From the NCBI GenBank assembly GCA_951813075.1, contig OX638343.1, forward strand, positions 1,899,087 through 1,963,086: a stretch of 64,000 bases of DNA, written 5' to 3'. Made by a program: the position numbers and the translations under genes. This DNA is from Arenicellales bacterium (GTDB taxonomy: Bacteria; Pseudomonadota; Gammaproteobacteria; Arenicellales; JAJDZL01). Under the pieces are notes generated by a model. That model was given only the letters and a program-made list of their open reading frames with translations. It was not told the DNA's origin and ran no database searches. Every line of letters starts with the position of its first letter. Position 1 is the first letter of the stretch. Shown in pieces: positions 4,872 through 41,066 of this stretch.

Positions 4872-5465
4872 TCAGTCGCGGCCAAACTCAGTGATATCAA
4901 CTTCGTCCAGATGGATCGTCTCTACCTTTTCCCGCTCGTTGACAATCTGTTTCAGCTCGTCCGGCGCAAACAATTGCACGAGTTTTCGAAAAGCCATGCC
5001 AACCGCACTGATCAGGAGCAATACGAAACCGATCGGGAGTGCGGCCTTGATGATCCATCGAAAAGGCAGACCGGTAGCTGATTCTGCCATCTCATTTTGA
5101 ATGAACGAGCGGTGCCACCAATCGACACCGTAGTAGATGACAATAACTGTGTAGGGGATCAGAAACAACGCGCAGCCGATTAGTTCGATCCACAGTTTGG
5201 TACGATGACTCAGACGTTCACGTACCAAGTCGATTCGAACATGGGCATCTTTAAGGTATGCGTAACCCAGGCAGAATAAAAACAGCACCGCATGAATATG
5301 CCATTCCAGATCCTGCAATTTGGTTGAGCCAAGTACAAGAAATCGGCGGGTGATTACATCGAAGACGATCACGGTCATCAGCAGGATAGCAGCCCAGGCC
5401 GCCACCCGGCCGATGCCAACAATTATGGATTCTGCGATCTCATCAAGTCGGAGAAGCAGTTTCAT
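4872..5465 (-). CDS. dctQ: TRAP transporter small permease subunit (DctQ family)
   Basis: 197 aa with four predicted TM segments, positioned between dctP and dctM. Confidence 0.8.
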   Translation of the reverse strand: MKLLLRLDEIAESIIVGIGRVAAWAAILLMTVIVFDVITRRFLVLGSTKLQDLEWHIHAVLFLFCLGYAYLKDAHVRIDLVRERLSHRTKLWIELIGCALFLIPYTVIVIYYGVDWWHRSFIQNEMAESATGLPFRWIIKAALPIGFVLLLISAVGMAFRKLVQLFAPDELKQIVNEREKVETIHLDEVDITEFGRD

Positions 5466-5592
5466 GTTGACGCGACCGTTTCTTTTCTACTGGCAATCAT
5501 AAAATCACCTGCTGAAGAAGCGGACCCGCAACTCCAGCAGGTGATTGATTCTAACGTTTAACGGAAAAAATCAGTTAGTCTGCAACTGGCTG

Positions 5593-6639
5593 TTACAGAT
5601 AACCGAGGTCACGCCAGATGGCATAGCTTTCTCGAAATGCCGTAAAGTGATCCCAGACTCTCTTGAAATCTGGATTGGCTTCGCTCTCTTCGGCAACAAC
5701 TTCGATCCAGGCAGCTTCAAGCTGATCAAGGATGTCTTGCGGCCAGCGATGAATCTGCACACCTTTTTCCTGCAACTCCGCCAAGGCCGGAGATTGAATG
5801 GCTTCGCCTTCAAGCAGTCCATAGCGGAAATTATCACCACAGGACAATTCAAACAGTGCGCGTTGGGTATCTGTCAGACCTTCCCATTTCTCCTTGTTCA
5901 TCAGAACTTCAAACAAGGTTGATTGCTGATGCCAGCCAGGGAAATAGTAATGCTTAGCGATCTGGTAGAACCCAAGATTAAGGTCAATGGCCGGCATGGA
6001 GTATTCGGTCGCATCAATTGATCCAAGTTCAAGTGCGGGGAAAATATCGCCACCCGGAATCAACTGAGTGGATACTCCCATCTTTTCCATCACCTTGGCG
6101 CCGAGACCGAAGAATCGCATTTTCAATCCTTTAAGGTCGTCAACTGAAGTGATCTCTTCTCGGAACCAGCCGGATGCTTCCGGCGCAATCACGCCGCAAA
6201 TCAGTGAATACAATCCATGTTCGGCGTAGATTTCGTTCATCAGGTCCTGTCCACCGCCAAAATAGATCCATGCGCCATACTCAGCTGCTTGCGGTCCGAA
6301 CGGAACCGCAGCAAACATGGCTAGTGCAGAGTTCTTACCGTACCAGTATCCCGGAGTCGACCAGCACGCATCCACTGCTCCAGTTGCGACGGAATCGAAA
6401 CATTCACGAGGTGGAACCAGTGCGCCAGGCTCAAAATACTTGAGCTCGATCTCGCCTCCGGAAACACGATCAAGTGTCTCTGTGACGTGCAATCCCAAGG
6501 TTCCCAGCTGAGTCAGGTTTTTGGGGAACCAACTCGCCATTTTCCATCGGAGCTTGTCAGCGGAAACAGGTGCTGAAGCAAGTCCGGCAAATGTGAAAAA
6601 CACGGCGACAATGACCGCAATTAATTTTCTAGATTTCAT
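5593..6639 (-). CDS. dctP: TRAP transporter periplasmic solute-binding protein (DctP superfamily, mannitol/chloroaromatic-type branch)
   Basis: 348 aa with signal peptide MKSRKLIAVIVAVFFTFAGLASA. First gene of a dctPQM arrangement. Confidence 0.8.
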   Translation of the reverse strand: MKSRKLIAVIVAVFFTFAGLASAPVSADKLRWKMASWFPKNLTQLGTLGLHVTETLDRVSGGEIELKYFEPGALVPPRECFDSVATGAVDACWSTPGYWYGKNSALAMFAAVPFGPQAAEYGAWIYFGGGQDLMNEIYAEHGLYSLICGVIAPEASGWFREEITSVDDLKGLKMRFFGLGAKVMEKMGVSTQLIPGGDIFPALELGSIDATEYSMPAIDLNLGFYQIAKHYYFPGWHQQSTLFEVLMNKEKWEGLTDTQRALFELSCGDNFRYGLLEGEAIQSPALAELQEKGVQIHRWPQDILDQLEAAWIEVVAEESEANPDFKRVWDHFTAFRESYAIWRDLGYL

Positions 6640-32553: not shown

Positions 32554-35500
32554 CTACACCTTGACGGGTTTGAGAAGAGACAATTCTGCAACTTCACGGA
32601 AAAGACCACTTACAAATCTGACGAGTGCCACACGATTCCGGCGAACCTCAAGATCTTCATCCATAACCATCACGTCATCGAAAAATCGATCAATCGGATC
32701 ACGCAACACAGACAGCTTGCGAAGAATCTCACCATGCCGCGATTCGCTGACCAAAGGAACTATCTGGCTGCTGAGTGTCAAAGCATGCTCATAGAGCCGC
32801 AGTTCGGATTGATCAGCAAGAAGATCGGGATTCACTTTAGCGGGGTCCGAATCGCTGCTTTGTCGCAAAATGTTACTGATTCGTTTGTTGGCTGCAATCA
32901 GATCTGAATACTCGGCTAATTCTCTGAACTCCCTTACTGCCTGGATACGTTTATCAAATTCGAGTGGTTTGACTGGTTTCAATTCGTAGACTGCTGCAAA
33001 TTCGTCCGCGGAGTACCCCTGATCAAGATAGTAGGCTCTGAGGCGTTCCAACATGAATTCGAAAATTTTCTGCTCGAGGTTGCCGTCCGGTGCTACTTTT
33101 ATCGCACTATCCGGCCGACCTTTTTGATCAACATACACAGTTACAGACTGTTTCAGCAAATCGACCAGATCCAAGTCCATGCCACATTCGATGATGATTC
33201 TAAGGATAGCGATCGTCATGCGTCTCAGCGAATAGGGATCTCGGTCACCGCTGACTTTCTCACCTGCTGCCATGAGTCCCACGATCGAATCCAGTCGGTC
33301 TGCAACAGCAATCACTCTCGCGACATCGGAGCCTGGCAGCGAATCTGTCACATTTCGCGGCATGTAGTGTTCTTCGACAGCCTCCGCCACTGTCGGTGAT
33401 TCACCGTCAAACTGCGCGTAATATCGCCCCATTACACCCTGTAGATTCGGAAATTCACCGACCATTTCAGTTATCAAATCCACTTTGGCGAGTTGTGCCG
33501 CTCTTTTTACCTCATGTTCATTCGTTCCGAGTTTCAAAGCGATGAATACTGCCAGCGCTCCAATTCGCACTGTTTTCGAGTTGACTGATCCGAGCGATTT
33601 ATGAAACATGAGATCATTGAGCATTGGGGATTTGCTTGCAAGTGTCGTACGACAATCCTGCTCCCAGAAAAACTTTGCATCAGATAGCCTCGCCCGCAGA
33701 ACACGTTCGTTCCCCTTGGCTATTCGTCCTTCGGGGTCGTTGCTGGCGGGTTTGATGTTGGCAACACCAATGAATCGGTTGATCAAATCGCCTCTGACAT
33801 CAAACATCGGAAAAAATTTCTGATGATGTCGCATTGAAGTAATCAAAACTTCGGGAGGAAGCTCTAAAAACGATTCGTCGAACGATCCACAAAAAACATG
33901 AGGCCATTCGACCAAATTGGTAACTTGATCCAACAGTTCTTCGTCGTTCAGGGTTGTGGCATCAAATTCTTTTTGAAGCGCATTCATCTGATCGCGAATC
34001 AAGTTATTGCGAATCTGCCAATCAGTCACCACCCGACCCTGCTCAAGTAGAACACGATCGTATTCAGACGCGGATCGGATTGTCACCATATTCGTCGCAT
34101 GAAACCGATGGCCGCGGCTCAGTCTGCCGGATTGTATTGCAAAGATTTCGTATGGTACGATTTCATCGCCGTGCAACAGCACGATCCAATGGACCGGTCG
34201 AACGAACTCACTTTCGTTATTCGCCCAGCGCATTCGCTTCGGCACCGGCAATCGGGAAATAGCATTGTTCACACATTCTGGTATAAGCTCATCAGCATCA
34301 CGGCCTGGTTCAGTGATCTCACAGGATACAAAACTGCCTTTTTCCGATTCCGTGATTGCGAGTTCGCTGACATTCACGCCACAAGCGGCTGCGAAACCGA
34401 TTGCCGCTTGGGTCGGTTCACCATCTTTGTCGTAAGCTCTTGAAACTGGAGGTCCACGGCGCTGCCGGGTTATGTCTTCACGTCGAGACCAGACATCGTT
34501 GACTGTCACCGCCAGCCGCCGGGGAGTTGCGTACCATCTGGACTCTTTGTCAAGCGTGTCGATCAGCCCTGATTCCAGTAACTCGTTTTTCAGCTCACTT
34601 TCCAACACAGAACCCAATTGATTAATTACATTTGGTGGAAGTTCCTCTGTACCAATTTCCAAAAGCAGTGGACGAGCCACCCCTGTTTGACTTGAAGATT
34701 GTCTCTCGCGTGACTGTTCGGTACGAGTTACAATTTTTTCTTCGTTGTATATCAAATTCGGAAACTGTTTGGCTTCGCGGCTTTTGTAGTAAGCAGTCGC
34801 AACTTCGCGTGCGAGTGCCCTGACTCGCCCGATGAATCGCGCCCGTTCGGTTACCCCAATGACTCGTCGGGCGTCCAGCAGATTGAATGTATGTGATGCC
34901 TGAAGTGTCTGTTCATAAGCCGGTAGTGACAATCCAAGCGCAACCAGCTTGTTACATTGCGTTTCGCAGGCATCAAAACGTCGAAATAATTCTTCCGTAT
35001 CGGCTTTCTCGAAATTGTAGGTGGACTGTTCCTGTTCATTTTGCAGATACAGATCGCCATATCTGAATCGATCGTTCCACTTGAGGTCGAAAACGCTATC
35101 GACTCCTTGCACATACATGGCAATTCGCTCAAGGCCGTAGGTAATCTCACCAGTCACAGGTCTGCATTCAAACCCTCCTGCCTGCTGGAAGTAGGTAACC
35201 TGCGTGATTTCCATACCGTTCAGCCAGACTTCCCAGCCTAGGCCCCACGCTCCCAGAGTCGGTGACTCCCAGTCATCTTCTACAAATCTGATGTCGTCCT
35301 TGAGTGGATCAATTCCCAATTCAATCAAAGATTTGATATAGAGATCCTGAAAATCAAGCGGGGATGGCTTTAAAACTACCTGATATTGAAAGTAATGCTG
35401 CAGTCGGTTCGGATTTTCACCGTAGCGACCGTCAGTTGGACGTCGGGATGGCTGAACATAGGCTGATCGGGAAGGTTCCGGTCCAATTGCTGCCAGAAAT

Positions 35501-35613
35501 GTCGCAGGATGAAAGGTACCAGCGCCTACCTCCATATCGTAGGGTTGCAGAATCACGCACCCGTTTTCCGCCCAATATTGATTGAGCGAGAATATGATCT
35601 GTTGGAAATTCAA
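32554..35613 (-). CDS. glyQS: Glycine--tRNA ligase, fused alpha (GlyQ) and beta (GlyS) subunits
   Basis: A single 1019-aa ORF. Residues 1 to about 290 are GlyQ-like ([34 protein letters not shown]). A Ser/Gln/Arg-rich linker ([16 protein letters not shown]) follows, then a GlyS-like body starts at [12 protein letters not shown]. Confidence 0.9.
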
Positions 35614-36162: not shown

Positions 36163-37320
36163 CTATTTACACGGTACACCAATGAATTCCAGATAGTTTT
36201 CCGGATGAATAATTTGAAATGAACTGTCTGGATAGGCTTGGCGCCAGCCACTTGGCGGGCGCATCGAGGACTTTGGAGACCACTTCAGTTCTACTGCATG
36301 TAGTTGTCCGCCCGTTTCTTCAATTAAATCGATCTCCTGTCGATCATATGTTCGCCAGAAATAGCTGTCCGCAAAACGTCGAAAGTAGAGATTCTGTTTC
36401 ATCCGCTCAACCAGTACGTAGTTCTCCCAGAGAGCGCCGGTATCGTCTCGCAGATTGATTGGATTGAAATTGTTAATCAATCCATTGCGGATTCCATTGT
36501 CATAAAAATAGTAGCGGCGGCTCTTGCTGATTTCTTTGCGTAAATTGCGGCTAAATCCGTACCGGCTGTATAGGACATAGGACTTTTCCAGCAGACCAAG
36601 ATATCGCTCTACGGAATTCTTGCTTAGACCCAGCTGACTGCCCAGTTCAGAAAGCGAAACCTCCTGACCAATTTGAAATGCGACGAGTTGCAGCAGGCGA
36701 AGCAGTTTGTCAGTATAACGAATACCCTCGATTTGGAGAATGTCCCTGAACAAATACGAAGCAATCAGTTCCTTGAGGTAGATTTGGCGTTCTTCGTTTG
36801 ACGCCATGAGAACGACCTCAGGATATGAACCGTAAATAATCCGTGATTCCAGATTGGCCCTGGTTTCGTGAGATTCTTCTACATTCTGAAGCTCAAATTG
36901 CGCAAGCGGTAGCAAGAGCAAAGTAAATTTTCGTCCTGTTAGGGGTTCACCAGTAAATCGCGCGACATCGAATGATGAAGACCCAGTTGCGACAATGCGC
37001 AATCCCTCAACATGATCTACCAGTAGTTTCAGGTTGAGTCCAACCTGTCGCACATACTGCGCCTCATCGACAACAAGCGTTCGCCTTGTGCCGACAAAAC
37101 TTTTCAGTTTGGAAACGGACTGGCTTTCCAAATATTCCCGAACCGTTATGTCTTCACCGGTTACAACCAGCGCATTTGGATCGTATTGTTGAACGTAACG
37201 CTGAATCAAAGTGGTTTTGCCAACGCGGCGAGGACCATAAACGACTGCGACATTGCCCGGTGCAACTATTGATTTAAGTTGCGTTAACTGTTCTTGGGGT
37301 ATGTAGTGAAAATTTGACAA
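36163..37320 (-). CDS. AAA+ ATPase with wHTH and DUF4143-type C-terminal domain (COG1373-like)
   Basis: Walker A GPRRVGKTT and Walker B LVVDEAQ. HTH-like segment LSELGSQLGLSKNSVERYLGLLE. C-terminal EIDLI...AVELKW resembles a PD-(D/E)xK core. TTG start. Confidence 0.8.
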   Translation of the reverse strand: MSNFHYIPQEQLTQLKSIVAPGNVAVVYGPRRVGKTTLIQRYVQQYDPNALVVTGEDITVREYLESQSVSKLKSFVGTRRTLVVDEAQYVRQVGLNLKLLVDHVEGLRIVATGSSSFDVARFTGEPLTGRKFTLLLLPLAQFELQNVEESHETRANLESRIIYGSYPEVVLMASNEERQIYLKELIASYLFRDILQIEGIRYTDKLLRLLQLVAFQIGQEVSLSELGSQLGLSKNSVERYLGLLEKSYVLYSRYGFSRNLRKEISKSRRYYFYDNGIRNGLINNFNPINLRDDTGALWENYVLVERMKQNLYFRRFADSYFWRTYDRQEIDLIEETGGQLHAVELKWSPKSSMRPPSGWRQAYPDSSFQIIHPENYLEFIGVPCK

Positions 37321-38141
37321 AGTGACTATATTTATACAAATTACGTCAGTATATTATTACTTATTTAGAATAATTTAGTCAGAAATACAATTCAATACCC
37401 ATTATTGAGATTTTTTCGTTGGACATGATTCTACAGCTTCCAGGCGCGGGATATACCAACGAATGGTGTATTGTCACGAAAATCTGAAACAGACGAGTGT
37501 ATTCCAAACAAAGTTCAGGCAAGTTTCGGCGCAAGACGGATGGCTACACAACTTGTGACAGATTCTGTTGCGTCGATGCCACCAAAATCATCCTGTTAGA
37601 AAGAAATTATTCATGTTGAATATGACAGGTTATTATCTTTTTATGTTCAAGTTGTCTGTTCACTTCTGTAGATTTTTCAAACAAATTGACCGGCAAAATA
37701 AACCGTGAATTCATTTCTTCCTTCTGTAGAAAACGTGAAACGTAGTATATTGCTAGCGTTATAGTATTGAATTTATTATCCAAATCGGTTGAATTATTAA
37801 GGGATCATCTACCAATCGATAGAGGATATGTCCAATTTCAGCATCGGTCGCGAATCATTTTTGAGGCGACGAGTTGTGCGAACGATACGGCTCGCAGCAA
37901 CCGGGAGTCGACAAGAGTATGATCGCGCATTGGCTGGTTCGTCCGCTGGGCTGAACACTCAGATTTACGTCTGAATTTGCCGCAAACTATTACAGGACTG
38001 TCGTTTGAAACCTAACTGAAGCGTACTACGCGCGAGATTGGCGAGAAACTAGAATTCATCCAACCCGAATTTTCAACCAACATTTCCAACAAGCCATACA
38101 AGTACAATACCCACAAAAGTAATTGTGACCCTGATAACACT

Positions 38142-39185
38142 ATGAAAACCCAAAGAAAAGTAGTTGCGCTGATTTCTGGTGGCCTGGATTCCATGCTCGC
38201 GGCCCGTATCATGCTGGGGCAGAATCTTCATGTTGAAGGATTGAATATATTTACAGGGTTCTGTGTGCAAGGACACACTCATGCGATCCGCAATGAGCAC
38301 CGCAAAAAGCAAAAGCGCAACGATGCACTCTGGGTTGCCGAAAAGATCGGAATCAAACTTCATATCATTGACGCGATCGAGGCCTACAAGGACGTGGTTC
38401 TGAATCCGAAACATGGCTACGGCGCCAATCTCAATCCCTGTCTTGACTGCAAAGGATTCATGGTCGGCAAGGCCCGGGATTGGATGGAACAAAACGGATT
38501 CGATTTCATCGTTACCGGAGAAGTGCTGGGACAGCGGCCGAAGTCGCAAAAACGTTCAACATTTCCTGTCGTTGCTCGGGAATCAGGCGCGTTTGACCGT
38601 TTACTGCGTCCGTTGAGCGCACAACTATTGCCTCCAACATTACCTGAGCGAGCGGGGTGGGTCGATCGCGAGAAACTCTTTAAGTTTTCCGGGCGATCGC
38701 GTCGCGGCCAGATCGAACTTGCAAATGACTTTGGAATTACCGAATTCTCACAACCGGCGGGCGGATGTTGTTTCTTGACCGATACGGCGTACTCAAGAAA
38801 GCTCCAGGACTTCTGGGACCACCGTCCGGATCGAGATTATGAGCTCGACGACATCATGCTGCTCAAAGTCGGACGACATCTTCGCCTGACCGATAGCTGG
38901 AAACTGATCATCGCCAGAGACTCCGGTGAAACCCATTATCTGAATGGATACAGGTCTAAGTTCGCGCACTTCGCCATAACCAGTCATTCTGGACCAGTGA
39001 CACTGGTCGATGGTGACATCCCTGATGCGGACGTGGAAATGGCTGCTCGTGTTGTCGCCCGCTTCGGTAGTACGCGCGACGCTGAAAGTGTCGATGTCTG
39101 CTTTACACGATCCGATGGAAGCCAGCATACCTTGACCGTATTACCGATGCTCCCTTCGGAAATATCTGAACCGTGGTACGTGTAG
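38142..39185 (+). CDS. PP-loop ATP pyrophosphatase, ThiI-like sulfurtransferase core without THUMP/NFLD or rhodanese domains
   Basis: PP-loop ALISGGLDS at the N-terminus. ThiI-like blocks IVTGEVLGQRPKSQ, LRPL and AGGCCFLTD, plus CxxC in NPCLDCKG. About 130 aa at the C-terminus are of unknown type. Confidence 0.7.
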   Translation: MKTQRKVVALISGGLDSMLAARIMLGQNLHVEGLNIFTGFCVQGHTHAIRNEHRKKQKRNDALWVAEKIGIKLHIIDAIEAYKDVVLNPKHGYGANLNPCLDCKGFMVGKARDWMEQNGFDFIVTGEVLGQRPKSQKRSTFPVVARESGAFDRLLRPLSAQLLPPTLPERAGWVDREKLFKFSGRSRRGQIELANDFGITEFSQPAGGCCFLTDTAYSRKLQDFWDHRPDRDYELDDIMLLKVGRHLRLTDSWKLIIARDSGETHYLNGYRSKFAHFAITSHSGPVTLVDGDIPDADVEMAARVVARFGSTRDAESVDVCFTRSDGSQHTLTVLPMLPSEISEPWYV

Positions 39186-39406
39186 ACCAGACACTTGATG
39201 CACGAAACCTGATCTGCCCGATGCCGGTCATCCGAACCCAGGAAAGGGTCGCGATGCTTGATACAGGACAGATTCTGGAAGTGCATTGCACCGACCCGGG
39301 AGCAATTGTGGACATCCCTGCATGGTGCAGGGTTCATGGACATAAGGTCCTGATCGCCGAAACCCATGGTGACGAATCCATCGTTCGACTTGAGGTGTGC
39401 GACTAA
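39173..39406 (+). CDS. tusA: TusA/SirA-family sulfur carrier protein
   Basis: 77 aa with LDARNLICPMPV, the CPxP active-site motif. The GTG start overlaps the upstream gene by 13 nt. Confidence 0.8.
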   Translation: MVRVDQTLDARNLICPMPVIRTQERVAMLDTGQILEVHCTDPGAIVDIPAWCRVHGHKVLIAETHGDESIVRLEVCD

Positions 39407-39513
39407 CTGCCCCGCCCGACTGAAATTCATCCAACGTAGATTAGCGGTCTTCGTCAAATTTCCTGCAGTCGCTCATCGAAGCGGATCAATCTCCTTCAGA
39501 ATTTAGCATTATT

Positions 39514-39550
39514 TTGGTGCATTTAAAAGTTATTGCACTAAAATAGTGCT
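39514..39550 (+). promoter_or_regulatory. NtrC-type enhancer sites upstream of glnA
   Basis: TGCACTAAAATAGTGCT (39534-39550) fits the TGCACC-N5-GGTGCA type dyad. An adjacent TGGTGCA half-site lies at 39514-39520. Both sit 40-80 nt upstream of the sigma54 promoter. Confidence 0.7.
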
Positions 39551-39590
39551 ATTGCGACAATGAATTACTGACTAATCACCAATTTTGACT

Positions 39591-39606
39591 TGGCACGGAA
39601 ATTGCT
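39591..39606 (+). promoter_or_regulatory. Sigma54 (-24/-12) promoter of glnA
   Basis: TGGCACGGAAATTGCT is an exact fit to TGGCAC-N5-TTGCW, 50 nt upstream of the glnA ATG. Confidence 0.85.
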
Positions 39607-39656
39607 ACTAAAACAGGGTTACGTAACTTTTATCTGTTTTTTGGAGGGAAAATTCT

Positions 39657-41066
39657 ATGTCAGTTGAAAATGTTATGCAGATGATCAAGGATATCGATGC
39701 CAAATTTATCAGTCTGCGCTTTACGGATACAAGAGGCAAGGTGCAGCATCTGGATATCCCTATTTCTGCATTTTCGGAAAAAATGTTCGACGAGAATGTG
39801 ATGTTTGATGGGTCGTCTATCGCTGGATGGCAGCCGATCAACGAATCTGATATGGCGATGCGGTTGGATCCGACGGCAGCAATTATTGACCCATTCACGC
39901 AGGAACCTACAGTTGCAATCCGATGTAGCATCTTCCATCCAACCAAGAACGAGTGGTACGAAAAAGACCCCCGCAGTATCGCTCAGAAAGCGGAAGATTA
40001 CCTTTTGTCAACCGGGTTAGCAGATACCGCCTATTTCGGACCGGAACCGGAATTCTTCGTATTTGACGGTGTTCGCTGGGGCAATGCCATGGAGGGTGTG
40101 TTTTATGAAATCCATTCGTATGAAGGCTCATGGAACAGTGCGCAGGACTTCGATGAAGGACCGAATCTGGGACACAGACCCTCCGTCAAGGGTGGATATT
40201 TTCCCGTTCCACCCATTGATTCATTGAGCGATATCCGAGCAGCCATGTGCGATGCCATGATCAGTATGGGTGTTGGTGTCGACAAGCATCACCACGAAGT
40301 CGCGACAGCCGGTCAGGGTGAGATTGGTGTAATTTTCAACAGTCTGGTCAAAATGGCAGACCGCACGCAGATCTATAAATTCTGCGTCAAGAACGTTGCT
40401 GCCGCACACGGGATGACTGCGACATTCATGCCCAAGCCTCTGGTCGGTGACAACGGTTCAGGAATGCATACGCATCAGTCACTGTTCAAAGATGGAAAAA
40501 ATCTGTTCGTAGGTGACGGACACTGTGGCTTGAGTGAAATGGCACTGCATTACATTGGCGGAATTTTCAAACATGCGAAAGCACTGAACGCGTTCACCAA
40601 TCCATCAACCAACAGCTATAAACGCCTGGTGCCAGGATTTGAGGCGCCAGTGCTATTGAAGTACTCGGCAATCAACAGATCAGCTTCGGTTCGAATTCCG
40701 TTCTCACCGGATGTTGGACGCCGAGTTGAGGTTCGGTTCCCTGACCCATTGGCCAATCCTTATCTCGCGTTTTCGGCGATGATGATGGCTGGACTTGATG
40801 GCATCCGGAACAAGATTGACCCGGGTCTTCCGGTTGAGGTGGATTTGTATGAGCTGTCTCGTGCAGAAGAAAAGAGCATCCCACATGTTGCAGCTTCCCT
40901 GCGTCAGGCACTGGAAGCGCTTGATTCCGACCGTGATTTTCTCAAGGCCGGGGGTGTGTTCTCAGACAACGCCATCGATTCTTATATCGGGTTGCTATCG
41001 GAGGATGTTGATGCGATGCAGCTGGTCACGCATCCGCTGGAATTCGAAATGTACTACAGCGGATAA
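39657..41066 (+). CDS. glnA: Glutamine synthetase, type I
   Basis: 469 aa with [16 protein letters not shown] and the adenylylation-loop context [12 protein letters not shown]. Confidence 0.95.

Follow-up and report, generated by a model that had tools for sequence, protein, structure and literature searches.

We analyzed a stretch of 64,000 nucleotides (nt) from an Arenicellales bacterium (assembly GCA_951813075.1, contig OX638343.1, positions 1,899,087 to 1,963,086), hereafter the window, with a focus on two overlapping genes on its forward strand: a thiI-like gene encoding a PP-loop enzyme, and a tusA gene encoding a sulfur carrier of the TusA family. Downstream of tusA follow glnA (39657..41066) and then ntrB and ntrC. 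An earlier note on this DNA, made from the letters alone, had described an open reading frame (ORF) of 347 amino acids (aa) with a PP-loop (SGGLDS) and the cysteine motifs PCLDCK and GGCCF, which ends 13 nt inside a TusA gene with a CPMP motif and lies upstream of glnA; all of these features were confirmed. Judged by its sequence, the gene pair is a typical member of a family of ThiI-like PP-loop enzymes fused to an NFACT-R domain. We consider it probable that the pair acts as an RNA thiolation module with its own TusA, most likely producing 4-thiouridine (s4U) at tRNA position 8 without a THUMP-containing ThiI. The features of the locus are compiled in Table 1.

Table 1 Features of the thiI-like/tusA gene pair. 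Positions refer to the window; conservation of the enzyme refers to the 120 homologs described in the text.
Feature	Position	Strand	Details
thiI-like gene	38142..39185	+	347 aa; PP-loop ATP pyrophosphatase, elaborated ThiI-type insert and C-terminal NFACT-R_2; alignment with 347-aa homologs begins at residue 1
SGGLDS, residues 12-17, ATP binding/adenylation	38175..38192	+	S12, G14, L15 and D16 invariant; G13 and S17 at least 90%
CLDC, Cys100 and Cys103 (within PCLDCK, 99-104), candidate iron-sulfur (Fe-S) ligands or catalytic cysteines	38439..38450	+	120/120 homologs; start of helix 100-117 in the model
GRSRRGQ, residues 184-190, family-specific GRxRxxQ of the ThiI+NFACT-R insert	38691..38711	+	G184, R185 and Q190 at least 90%; R187 invariant
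Cys210 (within GGCCF, 207-211), third invariant cysteine	38769..38771	+	120/120 homologs; flexible loop
NFACT-R_2 (DUF814-type), predicted RNA-binding, residues 244-346	38871..39179	+	PF18297, E 1e-27, 96.8 bits (cut-off 26.9), profile positions 1-104 of 104
Overlap of thiI-like stop region with tusA start	39173..39185	+	13 nt; translational coupling suggested by position
tusA paralog, apparently dedicated to the thiI-like gene	39173..39406	+	77 aa; GTG start; PF01206 match
CPMP, loop of persulfide-carrying Cys15 of TusA, residues 15-18	39215..39226	+	C15, P16 and P18 invariant; residues 14-17 in predicted interface

Domain architecture of the enzyme and its TusA

Searches with Pfam models assigned residues 3-136 of the enzyme to a PP-loop domain, which is matched by both the MnmA-type model PF03054 (E 9e-12) and the ThiI-type model PF02568. 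Neither a THUMP nor a rhodanese domain was found in the 347-aa protein with the Pfam and NCBIfam models. Together with the conserved adjacency of tusA (see below), this bears out the view of the earlier note that the locus encodes a THUMP-less, rhodanese-less ThiI-like enzyme with a tightly linked TusA. The NCBIfam models for MnmA, ThiI, TtuA and LarE cover the PP-loop core only, and all of them score far under their cut-offs. The canonical ThiI model TIGR00342 reaches 34.9 bits (cut-off 264.5) over profile positions 171-292, the two MnmA/TrmU models (TIGR00420, and NF001138 with E 2e-12) reach, one of them 46.6 bits (cut-off 284) and the other 44.1 bits (cut-off 237), over profile positions 1-125, and the LarE model reaches 12.7 bits (cut-off 150).

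Conservation was assessed with 120 diverse homologs at 32-63% identity, which also served to build a family profile. This profile aligns with ThiI of B. anthracis through the ThiI-type TGE-LGQ--SQ...RPL stretch (E 2.5e-11), and its alignment with MnmA stops near residue 120. In addition to the residues listed in Table 1, D102 and R132 are invariant, and T166 and E169, forming a TxxE motif, are conserved in at least 90% of the homologs. In the comparison with MnmA, Cys103 and Cys210 are the counterparts of its catalytic residues Cys102 and Cys199, and the CLDC motif aligns with the NP(D/C)xxC motif. The earlier note had pointed to an Fe-S-like cysteine pattern consisting of a CxxC and a CC motif. 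Its likeness to Fe-S enzymes is reasonable, since the arrangement of a CXXC plus one further cysteine is invariant, but the Cys209-Cys210 doublet is not conserved: Cys209 occurs in only 23/120 homologs and is gapped in 94, leaving Cys210 as the conserved residue. Another cysteine, Cys41, is present in 37/120 homologs.

The AlphaFold2 model of the enzyme has a high overall confidence (predicted local distance difference test, pLDDT, 94.9), which is lower for residues 201-210 (pLDDT 78). In a Foldseek search with this model, the N-terminal domain was matched to MnmA, LarE, ThiI and TtuA, including the [4Fe-4S] LarE structures 8cnz and 8cp4. No solved structure of a member of the PP-loop plus NFACT-R family was found in the PDB copy searched.

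The C-terminal part of about 130 residues, considered to be of unknown type in the earlier note, corresponds to a known domain, NFACT-R_2 (PF18297), which is present at full length. Here, a DxxxH motif is lacking, R245 is invariant, and R248 and R259 are conserved in at least 90% of the homologs. The family profile also aligns with NFACT-R of B. subtilis RqcH (residues 456-532, E 2e-7) and S. suis FBPS (5h3w), and the C-terminus of the model was matched to FBPS (5h3w_B) by Foldseek. In 23S rRNA, the A-site finger is a contact site of RqcH NFACT-R, and mutation of the conserved motif of this domain abolishes binding to the 50S subunit (bioRxiv 10.1101/2020.09.03.281279). As the domain of RqcH contacts rRNA, an RNA-contacting role is experimentally backed for a paralogous domain. 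Whereas the substrate class (tRNA, cofactor or small molecule) had appeared unclear before, homology of the NFACT-R domain now strongly indicates RNA. As a separate observation, one metagenomic representative of 604 aa (P0230) combines the PP-loop and a partial NFACT-R_2 domain (profile positions 1-74 of 104) with Formyl_trans_N/C domains resembling methionyl-tRNA formyltransferase; this protein may be either a real tRNA-related fusion or a chimera caused by a frameshift or gene call.

The second gene of the pair encodes a TusA protein of the two-layer alpha/beta type with the CPxP active-site cysteine, scoring 76.1 bits with the Pfam model PF01206 (cut-off 28.6). No in-frame start precedes the TusA domain other than the GTG at position 39173, which sits 13 nt before the TAG of the thiI-like gene. 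In an alignment of 37 TusA sequences, D9, C15, P16 and P18 are invariant. We further predicted the complex of the enzyme with its TusA, which resulted in an interaction prediction score from aligned errors (ipSAE) of 0.74 in each of three runs, whereas the highest value among three controls was 0.00. Such a mark is reached by 58/80 solved complexes and by 2/110 mismatched pairs, counts that are approximate as own family alignments were used for both chains. The runs share at least 73% of their contacts, and the pLDDT of the partner is at least 88. On the side of TusA, the predicted interface comprises residues 12, 14-17 (the Cys15 loop), 19-20 and 40-55; on the side of the enzyme, it comprises residues 35, 37, 58-77, 235, 239 and 265-270. 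The complex model thus supports, but does not prove, docking of TusA on the enzyme.

A described family, its linkage to tusA and its distribution

The architecture, the link to TusA and the prediction of s4U8 formation were already published in 2014, and the C-terminal domain is encoded in Pfam. Burroughs and Aravind (RNA Biol 11:360, PMC4075521) described a ThiI-like PP-loop domain fused to DUF814, which they renamed NFACT-R, without THUMP or rhodanese. In their family, the CxxC and an internal cysteine are retained, an elaborated loop carries the GRxRxxQ and TxxE motifs, and the DUF814 domain has two conserved arginines. TusA was reported as the only conserved neighbor, fused to the enzyme in Francisella philomiragia, and the distribution as nearly mutually exclusive with THUMP-ThiI. 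From this, the authors predicted a new route of tRNA 4-thiouridylation, leading from a desulfurase via TusA to the ThiI-like enzyme, with NFACT-R replacing THUMP (PMC4075521). The gene pair in the window displays all sequence features of this family, i.e. the domain order, the motifs, the NFACT-R arginines, a downstream tusA and a genome lacking canonical ThiI. We found no difference of substance, but the family had been listed for 'some gamma-proteobacteria' (PMC4075521), whereas 146/300 gammaproteobacterial genomes were positive in our sample. Full-length alignment to a characterized family had been named in the earlier note as a finding that would speak against its proposal. Such an alignment was obtained for this described family, the biochemistry of which is predicted only.

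In comparison with canonical ThiI/TtuI (TIGR00342; 2c5s, 4kr6), the enzyme shares the PP-loop with the TGE-LGQ--SQ...RPL stretch, the presumed ATP-dependent adenylation and the predicted product s4U8. It differs by the missing NFLD, THUMP and rhodanese domains, for which NFACT-R presumably provides RNA binding and TusA the sulfur. With the [4Fe-4S] sulfurases (archaeal TtuI, TtuA/NcsA and C-type MnmA), it has in common a CXXC+C triad at equivalent places of the PP-loop fold, but the RNA-binding domains are different and the predicted donor is TusA persulfide instead of sulfide or TtuB thiocarboxylate. The similarity to MnmA/TrmU (2der, 2hma) covers the N-terminal approximately 130 residues including the two aligned cysteines, while the central and C-terminal domains of MnmA are lacking.

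The survey of tusA co-occurrence proposed in the earlier note revealed a tight linkage. When the 80 loci most similar to this one were taken from reference genomes (61-89% identity; the majority from Arenicellales, Acidiferrobacterales, Thiohalophilus and Sulfuricaulis), tusA was located directly downstream in 76, and glnA lay within 4 kb in about 65. In a class-wide genome sample, tusA follows directly downstream on the same strand in 50/60 loci. The overlap register found in the window recurs in the majority of loci with 72-89% identity (about 20 of L004-L024) and in a few that are more distant. As the overlap or close spacing is kept in relatives, the juxtaposition with tusA is not due to chance. 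The order thiI-like/tusA/glnA is old and conserved; glyQ(S) often precedes it, and a putative cation-diffusion-facilitator (CDF) transporter is inserted in some cases. Overall, tusA is the only conserved functional neighbor, and no cofactor-pathway genes are conserved beside the pair. In another metagenomic representative (P0145, 425 aa), TusA (residues 3-73) is fused N-terminally to the PP-loop plus NFACT-R enzyme; in the fusion reported from Francisella philomiragia, the order is reversed and TusA forms the C-terminus.

To describe the distribution across the class, 300 family-balanced gammaproteobacterial genomes of at least 90% completeness were sampled. NFACT-R_2 was detected in 146 of them, canonical ThiI in 19, and both in only two genomes of a single genus. 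Co-occurrence of both enzymes is therefore rarer than by chance, with two cases observed versus about nine expected if they were independent. A similar picture emerged for 31 relatives including the host genome itself: none has ThiI, and 23 carry the thiI-like gene. The two genomes with both enzymes (G118 and G272, loci L144 and L145) carry an NFACT-R-type gene without adjacent tusA, and this copy could have a divergent function.

The host genome, consisting of one 3.14-Mb contig with a completeness of 97%, harbors a single NFACT-R_2 gene. The earlier note had raised the question of whether a full-length thiI exists elsewhere in this genome; no ThiI above the cut-off and no THUMP domain (E <= 0.001) was found anywhere in it. 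As THUMP is missing genome-wide, other THUMP-containing RNA methyltransferases also appear to be absent. A bona fide MnmA is encoded 0.3 Mb from the pair (G000:C1:2246088-2247128; 398.6 bits, cut-off 237), and 2-thiouridine at position 34 (s2U34) is thus already covered. A second TusA (74 aa, CPLP) is found outside the window (G000:C1:1026581-1029787, L084), where it directly follows an HdrB-like CCG-domain protein, a 140-aa hypothetical protein and a GcvH/LbpA-like protein. The sequences in this cluster suggest sulfur oxidation of the sHdr-LbpA type and hence a sulfur-oxidizing host. Since the second TusA sits in this sHdr/LbpA-like cluster, the TusA linked to the thiI-like gene appears to be a dedicated paralog.

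We also looked for RudS, an s4U-specific de-modification enzyme, as an indirect sign of s4U, and its domain DUF1722 is absent from the host genome. A gene for a TudS-type DUF523 thiouracil/thio-UMP desulfidase is present at G000:C1:2788153-2788584 (L104). However, TudS also acts on 2-thiouracil compounds, and this gene therefore does not discriminate as a sign of s4U.

Predicted reaction and competing explanations

We infer the substrate, the modified position, the cluster and the order of the steps as follows. A cysteine desulfurase would load a persulfide onto Cys15 of TusA, which would dock onto the PP-loop domain, while the tRNA would be held by the C-terminal NFACT-R domain in place of THUMP. 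The PP-loop would adenylate O4 of U8 with ATP, and sulfur would subsequently replace the adenylate. For this last step, Cys100-x-x-Cys103 and Cys210 would most likely hold a [4Fe-4S] cluster, the free iron of which would take the sulfur from TusA, in the manner of archaeal TtuI, TtuA and C-type MnmA. The earlier note had proposed that the two genes resemble a self-contained system for ATP-dependent insertion of sulfur, which our analysis supports.

Cysteines arranged as CXXC+C bind a catalytic [4Fe-4S] cluster in TtuI of M. maripaludis and P. furiosus (PMC9825150) as well as in C-type MnmA of T. thermophilus and in TtuA (PMC7025502). In TtuA, the first two cysteines are found at the start of a rigid helix and the third in a flexible loop (PMC7025502). 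The layout in our model is as described for TtuA, with Cys100 and Cys103 opening helix 100-117 and Cys210 residing in the loop of lower confidence. Furthermore, Cys100 occupies a position that is Asp in cluster-free MnmA. Because of the TtuA-like layout and of Cys100 in place of the MnmA Asp, an Fe-S-dependent last step is favored, and we consider it somewhat probable, given that the enzyme is a thiolase. A more far-reaching proposal is an RNA sulfurase that depends on a [4Fe-4S] cluster charged directly by TusA persulfide. This proposal is made tentatively, as we would place its probability below even. We know of no thiolase for which a direct hand-over from TusA to a cluster has been described. 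If true, the NFACT-R type and not THUMP-ThiI would be the main route to s4U (or to a thionucleoside yet to be mapped) across about half of the gammaproteobacterial families.

For the last chemical step only, one possible alternative would be an s4U8 synthase working without an Fe-S cluster, in which the persulfide of TusA would be passed to Cys210 and resolved by Cys103. Such a persulfide/disulfide cycle operates in ThiI and MnmA of E. coli. It would suit a persulfide carrier such as TusA, which could then act in Cys-to-Cys transfer, and it is in agreement with the alignment of Cys103 and Cys210 with Cys102 and Cys199 of the Fe-S-independent E. coli MnmA. Moreover, it corresponds to the original scheme of Burroughs and Aravind (PMC4075521). 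The invariance of Cys100, at a position that is Asp in persulfide-type MnmA (PMC7025502), argues against it, as do the requirement for a cluster in the characterized CXXC+C thiolases TtuA/Ncs6, archaeal TtuI and C-type MnmA (PMC9825150, PMC7025502) and the presence of [4Fe-4S] LarE (8cnz, 8cp4) among the fold-search matches. Overall, a cluster-free cycle appears possible but on the doubtful side.

Several points weigh against formation of s4U8 by the TusA-fed enzyme. The PP-loop core scores about equally on MnmA and ThiI models, and C4-versus-C2 chemistry is therefore unreadable from the sequence. The NFACT-R domain of RqcH binds rRNA and not tRNA. Cys100, Cys103 and Cys210 are not among the confident interface contacts with TusA, and the model gives no geometry for a direct sulfur hand-over. 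Complementarity with ThiI is imperfect, as approximately 137/300 sampled genomes lack the two enzymes altogether and one genus combines them, and these distributions are counts across related, non-independent genomes instead of a statistical test. Finally, no experimental test of any family member was found in the searchable literature, and the activity of the family is a prediction.

Some of these points would fit a different RNA target of the same family and TusA relay, for example another tRNA position or nucleoside, rRNA or another structured RNA instead of U8. In ThiI, THUMP gauges how far position 8 lies from the CCA end, and NFACT-R in its place could set a different site. The contact of RqcH NFACT-R with an rRNA hairpin, a catalytic core as close to MnmA as to ThiI, and the genomes with neither or both enzymes are all in line with such a target. 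On the other hand, ThiI-type motifs are found beyond the PP-loop, co-occurrence with canonical ThiI falls well short of the expected count, and s2U34 is already served by the real MnmA. For bacterial rRNA, we know of no established thiolated nucleoside. Altogether, we rate a target other than U8 as unlikely, albeit not negligibly so, and prefer s4U8 formation by the NFACT-R enzyme and its TusA.

Model scores and domain content led us to reject two further readings. The enzyme could insert sulfur into a cofactor or small molecule (in a LarE-like manner or in relation to thiamine/thiocarboxylate chemistry) with a C-terminal domain that does not serve RNA binding, an option left open in the earlier note and suggested by LarE structures, including [4Fe-4S] LarE, among the best fold matches to the PP-loop domain. 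This is very unlikely, as the C-terminus is a full-length domain of an RNA-binding family with conserved arginines, the LarE model score is negligible, and tusA is the only conserved functional neighbor, with no cofactor-pathway genes. Similarly improbable is an MnmA paralog making s2U34: E. coli MnmA depends on TusA as the first carrier of its sulfur relay, the best single-model matches are of MnmA type (PF03054, NF001138) and database names of homologs read MnmA/TrmU, but the scores are far under the cut-offs, the match ends after the first approximately 130 residues, NFACT-R takes the place of the central and C-terminal tRNA-binding domains of MnmA, and a genuine MnmA is encoded elsewhere.

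Public names for the family are inconsistent and often wrong, ranging from 'tRNA (5-methylaminomethyl-2-thiouridylate)-methyltransferase' and 'MnmA/TrmU' to 'hypothetical' and 'ThiI'; for the host gene, 'MnmA/TrmU' is wrong because the real MnmA is located elsewhere. As late as 2022, an experimental paper described NFLD and THUMP as present in every U8 sulfurase (PMC9825150), and a 2023 review of THUMP enzymes makes no mention of NFACT. The copy described here is real, ordinary and typical, and belongs to a module that is very common in bacteria and was predicted over a decade ago. In our gammaproteobacterial sample, genomes with the NFACT-R type outnumber those with canonical ThiI about eightfold (146 vs 19 of 300), which bears on the route by which a large share of bacteria would produce s4U, if they produce it.

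Genomic context of the locus

The earlier note had compared the locus with pseudomonads, which carry canonical thiI next to glnA. The host, however, is related to Arenicellales and not a pseudomonad. The notion of a 'thiI position' beside glnA was weakly borne out: only 2/15 sampled canonical thiI loci have an adjacent glnA, which is divergently oriented there, while the order thiI-like/tusA/glnA itself is widely conserved. With glnA adjoining canonical thiI in so few loci, an in-situ replacement of thiI beside glnA finds little support.

Many lineages have a gap of approximately 1.3-1.4 kb between tusA and glnA, which is not found in the window. At the single locus inspected in this respect (L053, Thiohalophilus thiocyanatoxydans DSM 16326), the gap is occupied by a 395-aa ORF (5261-6448), which reads by eye as a cation-diffusion-facilitator transporter. 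In the window, a scan of positions 37300-39700 for promoters and terminators yielded sites no more numerous than in shuffled sequence. Further upstream, on the reverse strand (32554-35613), one ORF of 1019 aa unites GlyQ-like and GlyS-like parts of glycyl-tRNA synthetase; at the equivalent relative position in Thiohalophilus (L053), the ORF encodes a separate GlyQ-like protein of 331 aa.

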